From Alkalilimnicola ehrlichii MLHE-1 (lineage in GTDB: Bacteria; Pseudomonadota; Gammaproteobacteria; Nitrococcales; Halorhodospiraceae), in assembly GCF_000014785.1 (NCBI RefSeq), contig NC_008340.1, forward strand, positions 2,880,001-2,912,000: 32,000 nt of DNA, given 5' to 3'. Below the pieces are notes generated by a model. That model made no database searches. It was not told where the DNA came from and saw only the letters and a program-made list of their open reading frames with translations. This document shows positions 9,741 through 25,183 of this stretch, piece by piece; within the stretch, counting starts at the first letter, position 1; each line of letters opens with the position of its first letter. A program made the translations under genes and the position numbers.

Positions 9741-10916
<1,176 letters not shown>

Positions 10917-10945
10917 ACCACGCCGGAGAAGAGGATCCAATCGAC

Positions 10946-11818
10946 ATGAGCGTACTTGTAGACAAGAACACGAAGGTCATCGTCCAGGGCTTCACCGGCA
11001 AGCAGGGCACCTTCCACGCCGAGCAGGCCATCGCCTACGGCACCAACGTGGTGGGTGGCGTGACCCCCGGTCGCGGCGGCCAAACCCACCTGGACCTCCC
11101 GGTGTTCAACACCGTGGAAGATGCCGTCCAGGAGACCGGCGCGGACGCCAGCATGATTTACGTGCCGGCCGCCTTTGCCGCGGACGCCATCCTGGAGGCC
11201 GCCGACGCCGGCATCAAGGTGATCGCTTGTATCACCGAGGGCATCCCGGTGCTGGACATGCTCAAGGTGAAGGCCGCCCTGGCGCAGTACGACGCCCGCC
11301 TGATCGGCCCCAACTGCCCGGGCGTCATCACCCCCGGCGAGTGCAAGATCGGCATCATGCCCGGTCACATCCACAAGGCCGGCTCCATCGGCATCGTCTC
11401 GCGCTCGGGCACCCTGACCTACGAGGCGGTCAAGCAGACCACCGACATCGGTCTGGGCCAGTCCACCTGCATCGGCATCGGTGGCGACCCGATCCACGGC
11501 ATGTCCTTCATCGACGCCCTGGAGCTTTTCCAGGCCGATCCGCAGACCAAGGGTATCGTCATGGTGGGTGAGATCGGCGGCACCGCCGAGGAGGAGGCCG
11601 CCGAGTACATCCAGCAGAACGTGGACAAACCGGTGGTGGCCTACATCGCCGGGGTCACCGCACCTCCCGGCAAGCGCATGGGCCACGCCGGTGCCATCAT
11701 CGCCGGCGGCAAGGGCACTGCGGACGACAAGTTCGCCGCCCTGGAGAGCGCCGGGGTCGCCACCGTGCGCTCCCCGGCCGAGATCGGCCAGAAGCTGAAC
11801 GAACTGTTCAGCGGCTGA
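10946..11818 (+). CDS. sucD: succinyl-CoA synthetase subunit alpha
   Basis: 290 aa: [14 protein letters not shown]...[10 protein letters not shown]...GIGGDP...MGHAGAII (phosphohistidine loop). Confidence 0.97.
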
Positions 11819-14077: not shown

Positions 14078-14842
14078 TCATTGGGCGGCCAACGGGTGGC
14101 CGGGGAAGTTCTCGCCGATCACCCGGCGCACGTCCTGCTGCAGGTCCGCCAGCTCTAGCATCCCGTAGGCCTCCACCAGCACCTCCAGGGCGTCCTCCAC
14201 CGCTCCGGTGCCCTGGTACTCCTGGAGCACCGTGCGGGCACGGCCCACCGCCGCCACCGGCGCATCCCGCCGGAGGTAGAAGCGCGCCACGTAGATCTCG
14301 TGCCGCGCCAGCAGGTCGCGGATCTCCTGCATCCGCTCTCGGGCGTCGTCCACGTATTCGCTGTCCGGATGGCGCTGGATCAGCTCCCGGAAATCCACAA
14401 AGGCGCGACGCAACGGTTGCGGGTCGCGCAGACTGCGGTCGAGATTGAAAACCCGGGTGAAGAACTCATCGCCAACGCCCGCGTTCGCCAGCCCACGCAT
14501 GTACCGGGCGTACGCCACGTTCGGGTCGCGGGGATAGAGCCGCATGAAGCGGTCGGCGGCGGCGATGGTCGATTCCAGCTCACCGGCCTGGTAATAGGCG
14601 TAGATGATATCCAGCTGCGCCTGGGTGGCGAAGGGCCCAAAGGGGAAGCGCCCCTGGAGGCGTTCCAGCGTCTCCACGGCCATGGTGTAGTTGCCATTCT
14701 CCAGCTGGCGCCGCGCCTGCTGATAGAGTTCCTCCGCGGTGGCCTGCTCCTCCTGGCGCTCCGGACCGTTGGAGGAACAGCCGCCGGCCAGCAACAGCGG
14801 CACGATCAGGAGCAGCGACCACAGCCAGGGCTTGCGCGACAT
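14078..14842 (-). CDS. bamD: outer membrane protein assembly factor BamD (lipoprotein)
   Basis: 254 aa from ATG 14842. Lipobox LLLAGGC and TPR-like repeats (AEELYQQARRQLENGNYTMAVETLERLQGRFPFGPFATQAQLDIIYAYYQ). Divergent from rluD, as in E. coli and Pseudomonas. Confidence 0.9.
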   Translation of the reverse strand: MSRKPWLWSLLLIVPLLLAGGCSSNGPERQEEQATAEELYQQARRQLENGNYTMAVETLERLQGRFPFGPFATQAQLDIIYAYYQAGELESTIAAADRFMRLYPRDPNVAYARYMRGLANAGVGDEFFTRVFNLDRSLRDPQPLRRAFVDFRELIQRHPDSEYVDDARERMQEIRDLLARHEIYVARFYLRRDAPVAAVGRARTVLQEYQGTGAVEDALEVLVEAYGMLELADLQQDVRRVIGENFPGHPLAAQ

Positions 14843-14912
14843 AGGGGACCTCAATCTGACATTCTGCGGGAAAGCGCTTATTCTACGCGCCTGCGCGCAG
14901 CGGAACAGCACC

Positions 14913-15854
14913 ATGGGCACTCGCATAGAACACGACATCCTCATCGACGAGCAGCAGACCGGTCAGCGGCTGGACCAGGCCTTGGCCGCCCTGCTGCCGG
15001 ACTACTCCCGCAGCCGTATCCAGCAGTGGATCCGCGAGGGGGCGGTCCGGCTGGAGGGCACCGCCCCCCGGCCGCGGGACAAAGTCGCTGCCGGGCAACA
15101 GGTCACGATACGGGCCGAACTGGAGGAAGAGCAACGGGTCAGTGCCGAGCCGATCCCCCTGCGCATCCAGTACGAGGACCGCCACCTGTTGGTCATAGAC
15201 AAGCCCGCGGGCCTGGTGGTTCACCCCGGGGCCGGCAACCGCGAGGGCACCCTGCAGAACGCCCTGCTCCACCACGACCCGCAACTGGCCGAGCTGCCGC
15301 GGTCCGGCATCGTACACCGGCTCGACAAGGACACCTCCGGGCTGATGGTGGTGGCGCGCAGCCTGGCCGCCCACACCGCCCTGGTGGCCCAGCTGCAGGC
15401 CCGCAGCGTCCGGCGCGAATACCTGGCGCTGGTGAACGGCTGTCCGGTGGCCGGCGGTACCGTGGAGGCCCCCATCGGTCGCCACCCGCGGGACCGCAAA
15501 CGCATGGCGGTGGTCGAGCGCGGGCGCCCGGCCACCACCCACTACCGGGTGGAGGAGCGCCTGGCCGCCCACACCCTCCTGCGCTGCTTTCTCGAGACCG
15601 GACGCACGCACCAGATCCGGGTGCACATGGCCCATGCCGGCTACCCGCTGGTGGGCGATCCCGTCTACGGCGGGCGGCTGCGGCTGCCGCCGCGGGCCAC
15701 CGAGGCGCAGCGCCAGGCCCTGCGCGCCTTCCAGCGCCAGGCCCTGCACGCCGCCCGACTGGCCCTGGACCACCCAGAGAGCGGCGAGCGCCTGAGCTGG
15801 GAGGCCCCCCTGCCCGAAGACATGGCCGCGCTGCTGGCCTGTCTGCGGTCCTGA
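14913..15854 (+). CDS. rluD: 23S rRNA pseudouridine(1911/1915/1917) synthase RluD
   Basis: 313 aa from ATG 14913. S4 domain (GQRLDQALAALLPDYSRSRIQQWI), catalytic HRLDKDTSGLMVVA, and THQIRVH near the C-terminus. Confidence 0.92.
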   Translation: MGTRIEHDILIDEQQTGQRLDQALAALLPDYSRSRIQQWIREGAVRLEGTAPRPRDKVAAGQQVTIRAELEEEQRVSAEPIPLRIQYEDRHLLVIDKPAGLVVHPGAGNREGTLQNALLHHDPQLAELPRSGIVHRLDKDTSGLMVVARSLAAHTALVAQLQARSVRREYLALVNGCPVAGGTVEAPIGRHPRDRKRMAVVERGRPATTHYRVEERLAAHTLLRCFLETGRTHQIRVHMAHAGYPLVGDPVYGGRLRLPPRATEAQRQALRAFQRQALHAARLALDHPESGERLSWEAPLPEDMAALLACLRS

Positions 15855-15908
15855 CACCCCCGGTGCCGGTGCTTCCCGCCGCGGGCACAACCACGCTACG
15901 CTTGGGGC

Positions 15909-17009
15909 ATGGACGCACTCACCGCGAAGACCGCGTTGGAGAAGGGTAAGGCCAGTCGGCACGAGTTCGAGGGCCTGCACTACATCCGGCTGCACGACAG
16001 CGTGGCCCGGCTGCCCAAGGGCAGCGTGCGACTCGACGATGGCACCGTCGTCCCGGGCTACCCCTCCATCGGCCGCATCCAGGCCCTGGGCCCCGGTCTG
16101 GCGAAGCAATACGGTGATGAGCTCTTCTGGGCGGAAGAGAAGATCGATGGCTTCAACATCCGCATCCTCGCCCACCAGGGCCGGCTGCTGGCCTTCAGCC
16201 GCGGCGGGTATCTCTGCCCGTTCAGCACCGACCGCGTTCCCGAGCTGCTTGACCCCACCCTGTTCGACGACCACCCGGGGCTGATCCTGTGTGCCGAGTT
16301 GGCAGGGCCGGAGAACCCCTACATGGAAGGCAGCCCGCCCCACGTCACCGAGGACGTGGCCCTGTTCGTCTTCGACATCCGGCGCGCCGGTGCCAACGGC
16401 TTCCTCCCGCAGGAGGAGAAGCTGGCCCTGGCCGAGCGCTACCGGCTGCCCCTGGCCCGGGTCTTTGGTCGCTACCGGGCCGACGACCAGCAGGCGCTGC
16501 ACGCCTTGATCCTGGAACTGGATGAGGCCGGCTGTGAAGGCCTGGTGTTCAAGGGCGAGACACGCGGGGCACGCAGCAAGTACGTCACCGCCCGGTCCAA
16601 TATCACCGATATCGCCCTGGTCAGCGACGCCCTGCTCGACCTGCCACCGGAGTACTTCACCCACCGCCTGATGCGCTTGGCGCTGTTCGAGAGTGAGCAC
16701 CGCGGCGACGACACGGCGCTGGAACAGGAGCTGGGCCGGGCCCTGCTCCGGGGCCTCGGCCGGGCGGTGGAGCGCAGCCGCAGCGTGGGCCGGGTCGGTC
16801 ACCGCTACCGCTGCCGATTCCGCGAGAAGCGCAACCTGGAGCACTTCGTCGCCCACCTGGAGGCCACCGGCGGCCCGCAGCACGTCAAGATCCTCTACCA
16901 GCCCACGCACCAGGAGGACGGCTACTGGGTGCTGGAGTTTGAGCGCGTGCTGCCGCGGATGACCGGTACCCTGGCCCACAGCCTTTCCGGCGGCGCCCAG
17001 TTCGACTGA
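15909..17009 (+). CDS. ATP-dependent RNA ligase, archaeal Rnl3 (Pab1020/MthRnl)-like
   Basis: 366 aa. Nucleotidyltransferase motifs occur in order: I WAEEK78IDGFNIR (AAG 16140-16142), III ILCAELAG, IIIa LFVFDI, IV CEGLVFKG, V RSKYVT. A ~130-aa C-terminal domain follows, as in the homodimeric archaeal enzymes. Confidence 0.8.
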   Translation: MDALTAKTALEKGKASRHEFEGLHYIRLHDSVARLPKGSVRLDDGTVVPGYPSIGRIQALGPGLAKQYGDELFWAEEKIDGFNIRILAHQGRLLAFSRGGYLCPFSTDRVPELLDPTLFDDHPGLILCAELAGPENPYMEGSPPHVTEDVALFVFDIRRAGANGFLPQEEKLALAERYRLPLARVFGRYRADDQQALHALILELDEAGCEGLVFKGETRGARSKYVTARSNITDIALVSDALLDLPPEYFTHRLMRLALFESEHRGDDTALEQELGRALLRGLGRAVERSRSVGRVGHRYRCRFREKRNLEHFVAHLEATGGPQHVKILYQPTHQEDGYWVLEFERVLPRMTGTLAHSLSGGAQFD

Positions 17010-17031
17010 CGGCCTACCCCGCCCCGGCGCG

Positions 17032-18348
17032 CTAGGCGCGCTGCACCCAATCCACGATGCGCTCCATCCCGGCCACGACGTTGGGACAGCAATGTTCGAG
17101 GAACTCCTCGGAGAGCTTGCCCGCCGGTTCCGCCGACGCCGCAGTGAGCACCCGGGCGCCGTCGAAGTCCACATAGGCGAGCCGGGCCGACAGTTCCGCC
17201 TCGGGCCGCCCGAACGCACTGCCCGGTAGCAGCGCCACGCCGGTCTCCTGCAGCAGCCGGTTGCAGAGCGCCGGCGCGGTGTGGATGCCGCGCGCCACCA
17301 GCCGCTCGCGCTGTGGGCTGAAGTCGGGGAACAGGTAGAACCCGCCAACCGGACGGGGCGTGGACAGGCCCGCCTGATCGAGGCGCCGCCAGCAGTACCG
17401 GCCCAGTGCCTGCAACACGCGCCGGGACTGCTGCAGGTATTGTTCGATCTCCAGGCCGCCCTGGAAGGCGCGCACCGCCGCATACTGGATCGGAGAGCTG
17501 GTGGAGGTGTAGGTCTCGCTGGCCACCACCGCCATGGCCTCCAGCAACCAGTGCAGCCCGCGGGGGAAGGCGAAGGTACCCAGCCGCCACCCCCCCGCCC
17601 CGCACCACTTGCTCAACCCGCTGCTGATGATGGTGCCCTCCGGGTAGAAGCGCGCCACCGAGACATGCTGGCCCCGGTGGTGCAGCTCGCTGTAGATCTC
17701 GTCCGAGAGCAGGACCACCCGGTACTTGCGGGCGACCCGGGCCAGCCCCCGCAGCTCGTCCGCGGTATAGCTCTCGCCGGTGGGGTTGTTCGGGTAGTTG
17801 AGGATCAGGATGCGGGGCCGGGAGGGATCCTCCGCACAGAGCTTCTCCAACTCCTCGGGCAGCAGGCGCCAGTCGTTCTCGTAGCGGGTCTGCACCCAGC
17901 GGATCTGCCGGCCGATGATGTGGGCCTGGGGGGCGTAGGAGACCCAACTGGGGGTGGGAATGACCAGGTCGCCGTAGTAGACCAACTGCAGGATGAACAT
18001 CAGCTCCTTGGAGCCCGGACCGATCAGCACATCCTCGGCCGACAGCTCCACGCCCTGGCTGCGCCGGTGGTACTCGGCCACCGCCTCGCGCAGGTTGCGC
18101 AGGCCCTCCACCGGCAGGTAGTCCTTCTGGTGGGCATTGGCCTTGAGCTCGGCCTCCACCGGCCCCGGGACCGGGAAGGGGGACTGGCCGAGACCGAAGC
18201 GGTAGACGTGGCGCCCCTGCGCGGCCAGGGCCGCGCTGCGCTCGTTGATGACGAGGGTGGCGGACTGGCCCAGCCCGCGGACGTTGAGATTAAGGTGGAT
18301 CTCCGGGGCGTGGTTGCGACGCCCGGGGTGGTTAGCGTATTGCGGCAC
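17032..18348 (-). CDS. PLP-dependent aminotransferase, class I/II fold
   Basis: 438 aa from GTG 18348 (AAGGGGGG upstream). ILILNYPNNPTG and the PLP-lysine block SSGLSKWCGAGGWRLG are present. Substrate specificity cannot be inferred. Confidence 0.85.
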   Translation of the reverse strand: MPQYANHPGRRNHAPEIHLNLNVRGLGQSATLVINERSAALAAQGRHVYRFGLGQSPFPVPGPVEAELKANAHQKDYLPVEGLRNLREAVAEYHRRSQGVELSAEDVLIGPGSKELMFILQLVYYGDLVIPTPSWVSYAPQAHIIGRQIRWVQTRYENDWRLLPEELEKLCAEDPSRPRILILNYPNNPTGESYTADELRGLARVARKYRVVLLSDEIYSELHHRGQHVSVARFYPEGTIISSGLSKWCGAGGWRLGTFAFPRGLHWLLEAMAVVASETYTSTSSPIQYAAVRAFQGGLEIEQYLQQSRRVLQALGRYCWRRLDQAGLSTPRPVGGFYLFPDFSPQRERLVARGIHTAPALCNRLLQETGVALLPGSAFGRPEAELSARLAYVDFDGARVLTAASAEPAGKLSEEFLEHCCPNVVAGMERIVDWVQRA

Positions 18349-18595
18349 AGCGATGCCCCCCTTGCTGACTGCGACCGGCGGACCGGCCGCTCACCATCAC
18401 CGGGCAGCGCATCGCCACGGCGAGCGCCCCCCTTTCCCCGAAGGTTAGCCGCTCCCGTCCGCCTGTCATGCCCACCCTTCCCGGACGGGAACCGGGCACA
18501 CTTCCTGCTACCGTTTTGGTTATCAGAAACGCGGCGTAGCCGGCCGCATGGGCCGGTGCGCCTCGTGGTCATGACAAAGATAAAGGGAGGCAGCT

Positions 18596-19378
18596 ATGAC
18601 CAGACCCCCCGTGGACGGGCTCCTGCTGGATATCGGCGGCGTGCTCTATCAAGGTGCAGAGGCCCTGCCCGGTGCACCGGAGGCGATGCAGCGCCTGCGC
18701 GCCAGCGGGCTGGCGCTGCGCTTCGCCACCAATACCAGTCGCACCACCCGCGCCGCCCTGGCCGAAAAGCTGGGCCGGCTGGGCTTTGACGTGGCGGCCG
18801 AGGAGATCTTCACCGCACCGCTCGCCGCGGTGCAGACCATCCGCGAGCGGGGCCTGCGGCCGCTGCTGCTGGTCCACCCGGATCTCGGCCCCGATCTCAC
18901 CGGCTTCCCCGATGGCCCACCCGACGCCGTGCTCATCGGCGACGCCGGTGAGCACTTCGATTACCGGGGCCTGAACCGGGCCTTCCGGCTGCTGATGGAG
19001 GGGGCACCGCTGCTCGCCCTGGCGCGCAACCGCTACTTCCGGGAGCAGGACGGGCTGTCGCTGGACGTGGGCCCCTTCGTGGCGGCGCTGGAGTATGCCA
19101 GCGGTGTGGCGGCGGAGGTCTACGGCAAACCCGCCCCGGGCTTTTTCCGGGAAGCGGCGGAGGCCCTAGGGGTGGCCCCGGAGCGGCTGCTGATGGTGGG
19201 TGATGACGTGGAATCGGACGTGATCGGCGCCCTGGACGCCGGCCTGCAGGCGGCCCTGGTGCGCACCGGCAAGTTCAGTCCGGAGGACGAAACCACCCTG
19301 GCCGACCGCGCCCCGGTGCTGGAGGACTTCCCGGCGCTGGTGGACTGGCTGCTCGGCGCCGGGGGCGAGAACGGCTAA
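18596..19378 (+). CDS. HAD-IIA family phosphatase, LHPP-like (TIGR01458-like)
   Basis: 260 aa (AAGGGAGG upstream). It is collinear with human LHPP as I remember it: LLLDIGGVLY / VLLDISGVLY, RERGLRPLLLVH / KERGLRPYLLIH, DAGEHFDY / DAGESFSY, LSLDVGPF..ALEYA, GKPAPGFF, MVGDDVESDV, LVRTGKF. Motif I is D-x-G rather than D-x-D. Confidence 0.8.
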   Translation: MTRPPVDGLLLDIGGVLYQGAEALPGAPEAMQRLRASGLALRFATNTSRTTRAALAEKLGRLGFDVAAEEIFTAPLAAVQTIRERGLRPLLLVHPDLGPDLTGFPDGPPDAVLIGDAGEHFDYRGLNRAFRLLMEGAPLLALARNRYFREQDGLSLDVGPFVAALEYASGVAAEVYGKPAPGFFREAAEALGVAPERLLMVGDDVESDVIGALDAGLQAALVRTGKFSPEDETTLADRAPVLEDFPALVDWLLGAGGENG

Positions 19379-19953
19379 TGGCCGGCACCCAGGTTCTCCA
19401 TCACCTGGCGCAGATAGTCCGCGGTGAGCAGCTTCACGCCCATCCGATTGCCCAACTTGCGCATGCCCTCGTCGGCGCTGACCAGCTCGGCGTCCAGCTC
19501 CATGGCCAGCAGCACCGCGTCCACGTCCTCGCGGGAGTCCACCAGCCCCTTGCGCATGGCCTCCCGGTAGCGCTCGCGCAGGCTGGCGATCAGCTCCGGA
19601 CGCATGTCGGTGGCCGCCCCCGCCTGGCGAGTGTGCTCCTCGGCGATCCGCAGCCCGCGGTCGATGCGGCCGCGCAGCTCGTGGATGAACTCGTAGAGGA
19701 TCTCCGCCGGGATGGTCATGCTGAACCGGCGCGGTGAACGGACCCAGACATCGGTCTCGAAGTCCGCCGCCATCTCCGCCAGGTCCCGCATGCGCCGGAA
19801 CTCGTCATAGACCGACAGCGGCATGTAGAACTCCGCTGGACAGCGCCGGGCCAGGTGCAGGAAGGTCTGCACCCCGGCCAGCGGGTCCTCGCCGAACTGC
19901 ACGGCGCAGTGGGGGTTGGTGAAAACGCTGGTGTCCAGCACGAATCGGCGCAT
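19375..19953 (-). CDS. PIN-like 'RNA ligase partner' protein (MJ_0950 / UPF0278 family-like)
   Basis: 192 aa from ATG 19953 (GGGAG upstream). MRRFVLDTSVFTNP is a PIN-type first acidic motif. The middle is helical (PAEILYEFIHELRGRIDRGLRIAEE). C-terminal DVDAVLLAMELDAELVSADEGM carries further acidic residues. The family call is from memory of archaeal MJ_0950 homologues. 4-nt convergent stop overlap with the HAD gene. Confidence 0.7.
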   Translation of the reverse strand: MRRFVLDTSVFTNPHCAVQFGEDPLAGVQTFLHLARRCPAEFYMPLSVYDEFRRMRDLAEMAADFETDVWVRSPRRFSMTIPAEILYEFIHELRGRIDRGLRIAEEHTRQAGAATDMRPELIASLRERYREAMRKGLVDSREDVDAVLLAMELDAELVSADEGMRKLGNRMGVKLLTADYLRQVMENLGAGH

Positions 19954-20035
19954 GGTGGCACTCCCTGTGATCCTTACCCTGATGATCCGCCGCGCCGCCG
20001 GCCGGGTCAATCCGTGCCGCGGCGCTGTCGCTGCC

Positions 20036-20770
20036 TCACGCCAGCCAGATCAGCGTGGCCATGCGCCCGGTCTCGCCGTCGCGGCGGTAGGAGAAGAACC
20101 GCCCGGCATCGGACCAGGTGCAGTGGTCCGCGCCGTACACGGCCTGCACACCGGCGGCGGCCAATCGTCGCGCGGCCAGGGTGTAGAGATCGGCCCGCCA
20201 ACGCCCCTGCGCATCCGCCCGGAAGCAGGGCCCGGCGCCGTCATCCCGGGCCAGAAAGGCCTGACGCACGTCGTCACCCACCTGGAAGGCCTCGGGACCG
20301 ATCGCGGGCCCCAACCAAGCCATCAGCCCCCCGGGGCCGCCCAGGGCGCTCACCCCCGCCTCCAGGATGCCACCGGCCAGGCCGCGCCAGCCGGCGTGCA
20401 GGGCCGCCACCCGGGGCCCGTCCTGGTCGCAGAGCACCACCGGCAGGCAGTCGGCGGTCAGGACCGCGCAGACCACGCCCGGTCGGTCGGTCCAACTGCC
20501 GTCGGCCTCGGGCACGCCCTCCACGGCGTGCGCCGCCACCACCCGCGTACCGTGGACCTGCCGGAGCCAGACCGGCCCCGAGGGCAGTGCCGCGGCCTCG
20601 CGCAGGCGCCTGCGGTTGTCGGCCACTCGCTCCGGATCGTCGCCGGTGTGGCCGCCGAGGTTCAGGCTGTCGTAGGGGGGCCGGCTGAACCCACCGGTAC
20701 GGGTCGAGACCAGTGCCCGCACCCCGGCCGGTGCCGGCCAATCAGGCCGGATGAAATCCAGTTCACTCAT
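20036..20770 (-). CDS. pgeF: peptidoglycan editing factor PgeF (YfiH/laccase-domain family)
   Basis: 244 aa from ATG 20770: MSELDFIRPDWPAPAGVRALVSTRTGG..., parallel to the E. coli YfiH N-terminus. TADCLPVV and ALHAGWRG motifs are present. Alternative starts at 20779/20782. Confidence 0.9.
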   Translation of the reverse strand: MSELDFIRPDWPAPAGVRALVSTRTGGFSRPPYDSLNLGGHTGDDPERVADNRRRLREAAALPSGPVWLRQVHGTRVVAAHAVEGVPEADGSWTDRPGVVCAVLTADCLPVVLCDQDGPRVAALHAGWRGLAGGILEAGVSALGGPGGLMAWLGPAIGPEAFQVGDDVRQAFLARDDGAGPCFRADAQGRWRADLYTLAARRLAAAGVQAVYGADHCTWSDAGRFFSYRRDGETGRMATLIWLA

Positions 20771-20825
20771 GGCGTCCATCATCGGCCAAACCGATGCTGA
20801 CGCCAAGCCGAAACGGTGCCCACGG

Positions 20826-20853
20826 TTGAAAAGCCCTGCGCACTCCCCCATCT
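20826..20853 (+). promoter_or_regulatory. sigma-32 (RpoH) heat-shock promoter of clpB
   Basis: TTGAAA (20826-20831), 14-nt spacer, CCCCATCT (20846-20853). This fits the E. coli sigma-32 consensus TTGAAA-N13-15-CCCCATNT and lies ~55 nt upstream of the clpB ATG. Confidence 0.6.
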
Positions 20854-20907
20854 GTTAGTGCAAAGGCATTGACGGGTGACTCACACCCTGGAGCAAGAGG
20901 ATTCACC

Positions 20908-23502
<2,595 letters not shown>

Positions 23503-23589: not shown

Positions 23590-23619
23590 AGCCCCCGACC
23601 TGCGAGTCGGGGGCTTTTT
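23590..23619 (+). terminator. rho-independent terminator of clpB
   Basis: agcccccgac (23590-23599), loop ctgcga, gtcgggggct (23606-23615), then a TTTTT tract. Confidence 0.8.
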
Positions 23620-23649
23620 GTATCTGGGCTGGGGCTACCGGCTGAAGCA

Positions 23650-23898
23650 GTGGCCCGAGAGGAACCGGCTGCACCCCTCAAGCTAGACACCAGCCGCGTC
23701 CGTTTGCGGGAAACCGACACCCGCCAGCACTTCGTCTACGTCTTCAACCGCATGCTGGAGAACCTGTTCATCGAGCGCATGGACGGCAACGAGGAGATCT
23801 TCGAGCGGCTGATGAACGACGACGACCTCCGTCGGGTGGCGGGCGCGCACCTGCTGGACGAGGTCTACGAACGCCTGCAGGAGGGCCGCGAAGCGTGA
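23650..23898 (+). pseudogene. C-terminal remnant of a helicase-type restriction enzyme R subunit (type I HsdR-like)
   Basis: The 82-codon ORF has no credible RBS or N-terminus. The segment FVYVFNRMLENLFIERMDGNEEIFERLMNDDDLRRVAGAHLLDEVYERLQ matches the extreme C-terminal pattern I remember from HsdR-like proteins (F..rM..NeeIf..i.dD.efr..v...l...vY..l). No helicase, hsdM or hsdS sequence is present. Confidence 0.45.
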
Positions 23899-23937
23899 TG
23901 TTATGGGGCTATGGCGTGAGTAGCCGGCCCTTCCCAC

Positions 23938-23978
23938 TTGACATACCATATATGATATACATACTATTTATGGTATGT
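23938..23978 (+). promoter_or_regulatory. putative promoter plus operator of the toxin-first TA operon
   Basis: TTGACA (23938-23943), 18-nt spacer, TACTAT (23962-23967). A perfect 10-bp inverted repeat, acataccata (23941-23950) / tatggtatgt (23969-23978), brackets the -10 element and covers the ATG at 23975. No Shine-Dalgarno sequence is present. Confidence 0.45.
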
Positions 23979-24256
23979 GGAAGATATTCGAGCACAGGAG
24001 AGTGGCGAAGAACTTGTCGGCAGCGCCTGTCGAGGTGCAGAAAAGGTATGAGAAATGGAAAGACATTGTCGCCATATCAGGGCCACAGGGGCTGCGCTCT
24101 ATTAGGGGTTTCAGCGATGAAGCCTTATCAGGCAAGTGGAAAGGCTTCCGGTCTTCACGGCTTAACATACAGTACCGCGTCATCTATCGGGTACGGAAGA
24201 ATCAAGTGCTCGTAGGGGTCGAGAAGGTAACTCCCCACGATTACGGGAGGAAATAG
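23975..24256 (+). CDS. type II toxin, RelE/ParE superfamily (HigB-like gene order)
   Basis: 93 aa. The C-terminal half, LSGKWKGFRSSRLNIQYRVIYRVRKNQVLVGVEKVTPHDY, has the typical RelE-fold signature (RliY...v.v..v..H.Y). It is followed 1 nt later by an XRE antitoxin gene. Confidence 0.75.
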   Translation: MWKIFEHRRVAKNLSAAPVEVQKRYEKWKDIVAISGPQGLRSIRGFSDEALSGKWKGFRSSRLNIQYRVIYRVRKNQVLVGVEKVTPHDYGRK

Positions 24257-24257
24257 A

Positions 24258-24518
24258 ATGAGCGAATATCGTAAGGCCAGGAAACGGCTCGAGGTCTCTG
24301 TTGGAGAGTCGGTCCGCATCATGCGTGAACTGCAAGAGATGAGTCAGAATGAGCTGGCCCGCGCTACCGGGATCCCCCAATCCACCATTTCTGCTATCGA
24401 GAACGACCGCGTTCGCCTCGGTGTAGACAGGGCCAAGGTCCTGGCCAGGGCTTTGCGGTGTCACCCCGCCGTTCTCGTATTTCCTGGCTGGGACGTTGAG
24501 CAGGAGTCGGCGGCGTAA
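24258..24518 (+). CDS. XRE-family HTH antitoxin (HigA-like)
   Basis: 86 aa with GGGAGGAAA upstream. HTH segment: MSQNELARATGIPQSTISAIENDR. Confidence 0.8.
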   Translation: MSEYRKARKRLEVSVGESVRIMRELQEMSQNELARATGIPQSTISAIENDRVRLGVDRAKVLARALRCHPAVLVFPGWDVEQESAA

Positions 24519-24584
24519 CTGTCGCAGCCCGTGGAATCATCCACCGCTGGCGGCTCTGCCCATGCAACCGACACTCGACACCGG

Positions 24585-24608
24585 CCAGTGCTACTATAGT
24601 GTCACTGG
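24585..24608. promoter_or_regulatory. near-perfect 24-bp palindrome containing a -10-like TATAGT (candidate Phd/ParE operator)
   Basis: CCAGTGctACTATAGTgtCACTGG. The 6-bp outer arms and 8-bp centre are self-complementary. It ends 18 nt upstream of the antitoxin ATG. Confidence 0.4.
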
Positions 24609-24626
24609 TTGATTCGGGGTGACTCC

Positions 24627-24884
24627 ATGAAAGTTGAGCTCGTTACGAACCTCAAGCGCCAGGCCACGAAGATTCTCGCAGAACTGCGCGCATCGAAGGA
24701 GCCGGTGCTGATCACTGAGCATGGCCAGCCATCTGCTTACCTGGTTGATGTGCAGGACTACGAGTTTATGCAGCGCCGGCTTGAGCTGCTTGAAGGGCTC
24801 TCAAGAGGTGAGCGCGCTGTACTGGAAGGGAGAACGTACAGCCACAGTGAAGCCAGGGATAAGCTGGGTAAATGGCTGAAATAG
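24627..24884 (+). CDS. Phd/YefM family antitoxin
   Basis: 85 aa from ATG 24627: MKVELVTNLKRQATKILAELRASKEPVLITEHGQPSAYLVDVQDYE, the canonical Phd/YefM N-terminal domain. Confidence 0.85.
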   Translation: MKVELVTNLKRQATKILAELRASKEPVLITEHGQPSAYLVDVQDYEFMQRRLELLEGLSRGERAVLEGRTYSHSEARDKLGKWLK

Positions 24885-25183
24885 TCTGGACTGAGCCCGC
24901 CCTTCAGGAACTGGATGCCATCGCTGAGTACATCGCGCTGGATAATCCGGCGGCGGCAAGCCGTTTGGTCCAGGAGGTATTCGCCAAGGCCACACGCCTG
25001 GAAGAGTTCCCCCGATCCGGAAGGATCCCTCCGGAGCTGCCCAACTCCGTATACCGGGAATTAGTAGTACCGCCGTGCCGGATTTTCTATCGTGAAGACG
25101 GGGGGCGAGTTCTTATCCTCTACGTCATGCGGGAGGAACGGCAGCTCCGGGCATACATGTTGGGCGACAACTGCGTTGACTGA
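24872..25183 (+). CDS. ParE/RelE family toxin
   Basis: 103 aa, with a 13-nt overlap with the antitoxin. IVWTEPALQELDAIAEYIALDNPAAASRLVQEV...FPRSGR...YRELVVPPCRIFYRE...VLILYVMREER is a typical ParE pattern. Confidence 0.85.
   Translation: MAEIVWTEPALQELDAIAEYIALDNPAAASRLVQEVFAKATRLEEFPRSGRIPPELPNSVYRELVVPPCRIFYREDGGRVLILYVMREERQLRAYMLGDNCVD

Follow-up and report, generated by a model that had tools for sequence, protein, structure and literature searches.

An LHPP/HDHD2-family HAD-IIA hydrolase gene between the HARP and RNA ligase genes of Alkalilimnicola ehrlichii MLHE-1

Described relatives and the HAD-IIA protein

LHPP acts selectively on phosphoramidates, preferring free phospholysine by far to phosphohistidine and O-phosphates (PMC8163145), and is also a pyrophosphatase (PMC8163145; PMC11277029). 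It carries a Ser at the D+2 position, its capped active site may exclude proteins, and HADs of the NagD clade, the C2-capped HAD-IIA enzymes, use small molecules (PMC11277029). The family that holds LHPP and HDHD2, TIGR01458, is already catalogued. Our literature search found no mention of TIGR01458, and the HDHD2 papers that it returned gave no substrate.

The other system that concerns us is the pairing of HARP, a protein-only RNase P homologue, with an Rnl3-type RNA ligase, which is likewise already published (PMC12153264). In a mining study of HARP-positive genomes, Rnl3 was present in 89% of the genomes and co-localised with HARP in 80% of bacterial cases, and the two genes were 'typically bidirectional'. 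Rnl3 alone was over-represented, and phosphatases go unmentioned (PMC12153264). As cited there from PMC9945441, recombinant A. ehrlichii HARP oligomerises and did not cleave pre-tRNA in vitro.

We analysed a 32,000-nt stretch of the A. ehrlichii MLHE-1 genome, referred to below as the window. A first-pass annotation had described a 260-aa, LHPP-like HAD-IIA protein encoded between an RNA ligase gene and its 'partner' gene, and had proposed a functional link among the three. The ORF is present at 18596-19378 (+ strand). Its product passes the curated NCBIfam cutoff of TIGR01458 (HAD-SF-IIA-hyp3; 250.6 bits vs 175.95), with residues 6-250 matching profile positions 1-252 of 257, as well as that of the broader HAD-IIA family TIGR01460 (127.5 vs 100.15). 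The cutoffs of TIGR01457, NF007762 and the PGP/PLP phosphatase family TIGR01452 were missed, the last with 113.2 vs 201.95 in two fragments. Two Pfam domains, Hydrolase_6 (PF13344, residues 10-85) and Hydrolase_like (PF13242, residues 175-244), lie in its N- and C-terminal halves, and the C2 cap lies between motifs II and III, as in HAD subfamily IIA and its NagD clade. Three solved homologues (3hlt, 2x4d and 2ho4) span its full length with E-values of about 1e-62.

Read from the sequence, a Shine-Dalgarno-like AAGGGAGG at 18583-18590 (+) lies 5 nt 5' of the ATG at 18596. At the other end the gene interlocks with that of the ligase partner in GGCTAATGG: the HAD stop TAA occupies 19376-19378 and the minus-strand stop TAG (CTA on the + strand) occupies 19375-19377. 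The 4-nt overlap (19375-19378) is thus as originally described, but it is not conserved, as a relative (L167) has a 12-nt gap instead. Comparison with the two closest relatives gave dN/dS values of 0.17-0.35, from which we conclude that the gene is functional and under purifying selection. Neither intrinsic terminators nor promoters were found near the HAD gene.

All four HAD motifs are kept in an alignment with LHPP, HDHD2 and the 120 closest bacterial homologues. Motif II (T45-N46, 18728-18733, +) is invariant in 120/120 of these homologues, while motif III (Lys178 in GKP, 19127-19129, +) and the Mg2+ ligands of motif IV (D203-D204-V-E-S-D208, 19202-19219, +) are each found in 119/120; all three are also found in LHPP and HDHD2. 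Motif I (D12-I-G14-G-V, 18629-18643, +) holds the nucleophile Asp12, unchanged in 120/120 homologues, and a Gly in place of Asp at D+2. The sequence and the alignment bear out the reported DIGGV, matching DISGV in LHPP and lacking the second Asp. Its description as an unusual feature did not hold up. At D+2 the 120 homologues have Ser (70), Gly (33), Ala (15) or Asp (2). Since 118/120 carry Ser, Gly or Ala, the missing second Asp is a hallmark of the whole family and not of this locus, and almost all of these homologues sit away from any ligase. The Alkalilimnicola-like group itself includes one relative with DISGV (L167) and two with DIGGV.

Gene order and the split HARP/ligase junction

The HAD gene belongs to a four-gene block that interrupts a conserved rluD-pgeF-clpB neighbourhood. 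The left border is formed by rluD (14913-15854, +; M59 of the mechanical ORF is the first residue of the 313-aa form), which is preceded by bamD (14078-14944, -). Next comes the Rnl3-type RNA ligase gene (15909-17009, +), whose product matches TIGR01209 with 306 bits, has RNA_ligase and Pab1020 Lig_C domains and keeps the KxDG motif as EEKIDGFN. Only 22 nt separate it from a gene for a class I/II PLP-dependent aminotransferase (AT; 17032-18348, -) that scores below every NCBIfam equivalog cutoff. In Alkalilimnicola-like relatives we observed an extra small gene between ligase and AT, encoding 128 or 140 aa with no Pfam match (L001 667-1053, -; L167 916-1338, +).

Beyond the HAD gene lies the ligase 'partner' (19375-19953, -), a match to PIN_5 and to TIGR03875, 'RNA ligase partner'. 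This protein is HARP, of which the first-pass annotation was unaware; its UniRef family name is 'RNA-free ribonuclease P', and the 'partner' annotation should be read accordingly. Counted from the ATG at 19953 (the mechanical ORF reaches back to a TTG at 20010), the 192-aa form is 100% identical to a 192-aa protein of A. ehrlichii MLHE-1 (P0121). Upstream of HARP on the same strand is pgeF/yfiH (20036-20851, -), and clpB (20869-23502, +) follows. Just 5' of the HARP ATG there is a sigma-70-like promoter match, TTGACC-17-GATCAT at 19982-20010 (-), the sole such match in 15700-21000, where 0.2 would be expected by chance. Given its place directly upstream, HARP may own a promoter besides read-through from pgeF.

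The order of ligase, AT, HAD and HARP on the strands is + - + -. On the + strand the ligase gene comes after rluD, and on the - strand HARP comes after pgeF. Because the HAD gene is divergent from AT, across a 247-nt spacer, and convergent with HARP, it is in no operon with either the ligase or HARP. The HAD gene lies between ligase and partner as reported, and the AT gene lies between them too.

A separate observation concerns the stretch 3' of clpB, at about 23600-25000 of the window, where G+C falls to 0.57 and several small ORFs occur. The matching stretch of a second complete genome (CP184336.1, L169 2770-4249) holds genes for a ParE toxin, a PhdYeFM antitoxin and an HTH_3 protein, so this is probably a small toxin-antitoxin islet.

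The interval between ligase and HARP (17010-19374 of the window) is filled by AT and HAD, and other lineages show comparable interruptions. In Sediminicurvatus halobius, whose HARP is 83% identical, a gene for a 445-aa NAD-binding oxidoreductase lies between HARP and ligase (L168 8577-9949), and in another locus (L079) the gap measures 845 nt and contains a possible 206-aa membrane-protein ORF (10586-11376). Two or more lineages thus have unrelated genes, different ones each time, in a HARP/ligase junction that is normally tight and convergent. The surrounding order differs as well. In the window pgeF runs against rluD and clpB; in Halorhodospira-like relatives (L046-L048) all three genes share one strand. 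Inversion of an ancestral pgeF-HARP-HAD-AT-ligase segment could explain the present order.

Conservation of the neighbourhood and competing explanations

We determined which genes adjoin HARP in a sample obtained by a HARP-alignment scan with one genome per species. The 80 loci came to 1.25 Mb, with flanks of up to 10 kb, and in 57 of them both flanks measured at least 3 kb. All were bacterial, and they included Thioalkalivibrio, Aquisalimonas, Natronospira, Methylonatrum, Halorhodospira, Methylacidiphilaceae and Aquificota. The window proteins were used as tblastn queries (E<=1e-8 for HAD-IIA). The ligase was found in 59/80 loci, convergent with HARP every time and, in 57 of these 59, at a distance of at most 127 nt, compared with 2365 nt in the window. 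No HAD gene was detected within 10 kb in any of the 80 species-level bacterial loci, and AT was not a HARP neighbour in these loci either. According to neighbour clustering, the ligase is the only gene that recurs beside HARP beyond one genus. The next real neighbours reach at most 15/80 loci, all within L008-L022.

Two families, one at 41 loci and one at 33, were considered as a third HARP partner and rejected as probable antisense ORFs over the ligase gene. Apart from the ligase, the large clusters are apparently either such shadow ORFs or Thioalkalivibrio-specific neighbours.

The HAD side gave the same picture. The family comprises at least 4934 clusters (E<=1e-10, among 8000 candidates scored), compared with 533 for HARP, and some of its lineages, Immundisolibacter and mammals among them, have no HARP. 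Among 80 metagenomic HAD loci, 25 of them at least 8 kb long, HARP or AT was nearby in one only, an Alkalilimnicola-like contig (L087, the same contig as L001) whose HAD is 90% identical. Ligase, HARP and AT were all absent from the other 79. The AT-HAD-HARP-pgeF-clpB layout was confined to contigs in which the HAD shows 85-100% identity (L001/L087, L167, L169, L170 and L172), and the second complete genome mentioned above (L169) has the same layout as the window. At least three Alkalilimnicola-like lineages share this layout. Homologues of the HAD with 57-63% identity occur in unrelated contexts, for example beside pst/phoU, beside purL or 3' of a phosphofructokinase gene.

No recurring HAD neighbour that might serve as a clue to the substrate exceeded 5/81 loci. 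In four loci only, a TIGR01458 HAD gene lies about 110-150 nt 3' of a phosphofructokinase gene (PF00365) on the same strand: Thioalkalivibrio denitrificans (L173 6601-8762) and three metagenomic contigs (L089, L090 and L091). As LHPP has pyrophosphatase activity, this adjacency may point to the metabolism of PPi or of sugar phosphates.

These comparative data argue that the HAD gene is a bystander of ligase and HARP. Because it adjoins them only in the Alkalilimnicola lineage, a functional tie is unsupported. In our view the gene probably encodes a stand-alone, predicted Mg2+-dependent HAD-IIA phosphohydrolase whose position reflects an Alkalilimnicola-specific rearrangement rather than a shared function. 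The AT-HAD pair would have come into the normally tight HARP/ligase junction in that lineage. That rearrangement would also have brought the module to its place between rluD and clpB and turned pgeF around (compare L046-L048).

In HAD phosphatases, the Asp of motif I accepts a terminal PO3 group from the substrate. By analogy with the family, Asp12 would attack the terminal phosphoryl group of the substrate, forming an aspartyl-phosphate intermediate that would then be hydrolysed, while Thr45, Lys178 and Asp203/204/208 would hold the phosphate and Mg2+. Gly14, in place of a general acid/base Asp at D+2, fits leaving groups that need no enzymatic protonation. Candidate substrates would be small N-phosphoryl compounds, such as phospholysine or imidodiphosphate, or pyrophosphate. 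Phosphoramidates or PPi are our best guess, extrapolated from one mammalian paralogue.

The functional link proposed by the first-pass annotation would have the HAD enzyme serve the ligase or HARP. It might reset lysyl-AMP, strip an N-phosphoryl group from either protein or hydrolyse the PPi that ligase adenylylation releases. The gene does lie between ligase and HARP in every Alkalilimnicola-like contig seen, the KxDG lysine motif of the ligase is intact, and LHPP is both phosphoramidate-selective and a pyrophosphatase (PMC8163145; PMC11277029). Nevertheless, we consider this very improbable given the 0/80 HARP loci with a HAD, the 79/80 HAD loci lacking HARP and ligase, the far wider spread of the HAD family, the lack of a shared operon and the different gene that fills the same junction in Sediminicurvatus. 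A missing genomic association elsewhere had been named by the first-pass annotation itself as refuting the link, and these loci show just that. The chemistry points the same way. The lysyl-N-AMP intermediate of the ligase is an N,O-disubstituted phosphoramidate buried within the enzyme, while HADs transfer a terminal PO3; the AMP-lysine cleavers known to us are HIT/Hint proteins, not HADs. In addition, the substrates of C2-capped HAD-IIA enzymes are small molecules (PMC11277029). A narrower version confines the link to Alkalilimnicola, where an LHPP-type enzyme would have been captured into the HARP/Rnl3 junction and now serve that module. Conservation of the arrangement across the three or more lineages, at 85-100% HAD identity, leaves room for such local recruitment, which we regard as highly unlikely. 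PPi hydrolysis or N-phosphoryl removal would then be chemically most plausible, and direct de-AMPylation less plausible; hydrolysis of the PPi released by ligase auto-adenylylation would drive adenylylation. If correct, a bacterial TIGR01458 protein would for the first time be given a physiological role, and the HARP-ligase partnership, itself unexplained, would gain a third member.

The divergent AT gene offers another possible partner, with the two enzymes acting in PLP homeostasis or the HAD dephosphorylating an AT-linked phospho amino or keto acid. The common 247-nt spacer, the pairing kept in three Alkalilimnicola-like lineages and the HAD-IIA relatives PDXP/chronophin, which are PLP phosphatases (E ~1e-27), are consistent with such a pair. 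We think it improbable, as AT is absent beside HAD in the 79 other HAD loci, the TIGR01452 score of 113.2 is well short of 201.95 and AT itself is below every equivalog cutoff. A mobile toxin-antitoxin or defence island with the HAD as an accessory is suggested by the PIN domain of HARP, by published discussion of a toxin-antitoxin role for HARP and the ligase (PMC12153264) and by the way the block breaks a conserved neighbourhood. This appears extremely improbable: none of the four proteins has a PADLOC match, G+C is uniform across the block (~0.69-0.71), and no inverted repeats were found at its borders, with only weak GC-rich matches elsewhere (70-90%, 18-44 nt). Moreover, a T. kodakarensis ligase knockout grew without defect (PMC12153264). 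A stand-alone phosphohydrolase, brought to its present place by rearrangement, thus agrees best with the distribution of the genes.

Comparison with the HARP-Rnl3 pair, LHPP and HDHD2

The window holds both genes of the HARP-Rnl3 pair in their usual convergent orientation (Seshadri and Gopalan, mBio 2025, PMC12153264), and a haloalkaliphilic gammaproteobacterial host fits the published distribution. Here, however, the pair is split by AT and HAD, and the HAD is outside the module as published or as observed in our sample.

Among phosphatases, PDXP/chronophin, PGP, E. coli NagD and archaeal p-nitrophenyl phosphatases share the fold and the C2 cap with the HAD protein (PDB E-values 1e-27 to 1e-15). 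These enzymes have a canonical DxD motif I and phosphate-ester substrates, whereas the HAD protein is without the second Asp.

The closest likeness is to LHPP and HDHD2. The collinearity with human LHPP noted in the first-pass annotation is clear: HAD residues 6-239 align end to end with chain residues 12-251 of PDB 2x4d (E 1.6e-62), collinear over ~235 residues at ~47% identity, and LHPP differs by two short insertions, of 4 residues after motif I and 2 in the cap. Both proteins belong to TIGR01458 and neither has the second Asp (VLLDISGVLY in LHPP, LLLDIGGVLY in the HAD protein; Ser vs Gly at D+2), and motifs II-IV are identical. HDHD2 (human/mouse) is equally close. It provides the best structure match (3hlt, E 7.5e-63; 2ho4, E 1.8e-62), has Ser or Asn at D+2 and is ~44% identical over 246-249 residues without internal gaps; these identities to LHPP and HDHD2 are approximate, as the eukaryotic sequences were retyped from alignments. 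LHPP and HDHD2 are themselves ~44% identical. The residues beside the motifs lean towards LHPP (V16, Y18 and GKPxP; DIGGVLY and GKPAP vs DLSGTLH and GKPEK in HDHD2). The name 'LHPP-like' is therefore sound at the level of the family, but an LHPP-specific orthology is not borne out by E-values of 7.5e-63 for HDHD2 vs 1.6e-62 for LHPP.

Homologues of LHPP/HDHD2 occur widely in bacteria, so screening any of them for substrates would bear on what human LHPP does, which is debated; the Alkalilimnicola locus offers no special handle on this. Given the near-equal E-values and the identities of ~47% and ~44%, the A. ehrlichii protein is best regarded as co-orthologous to LHPP and HDHD2 alike.
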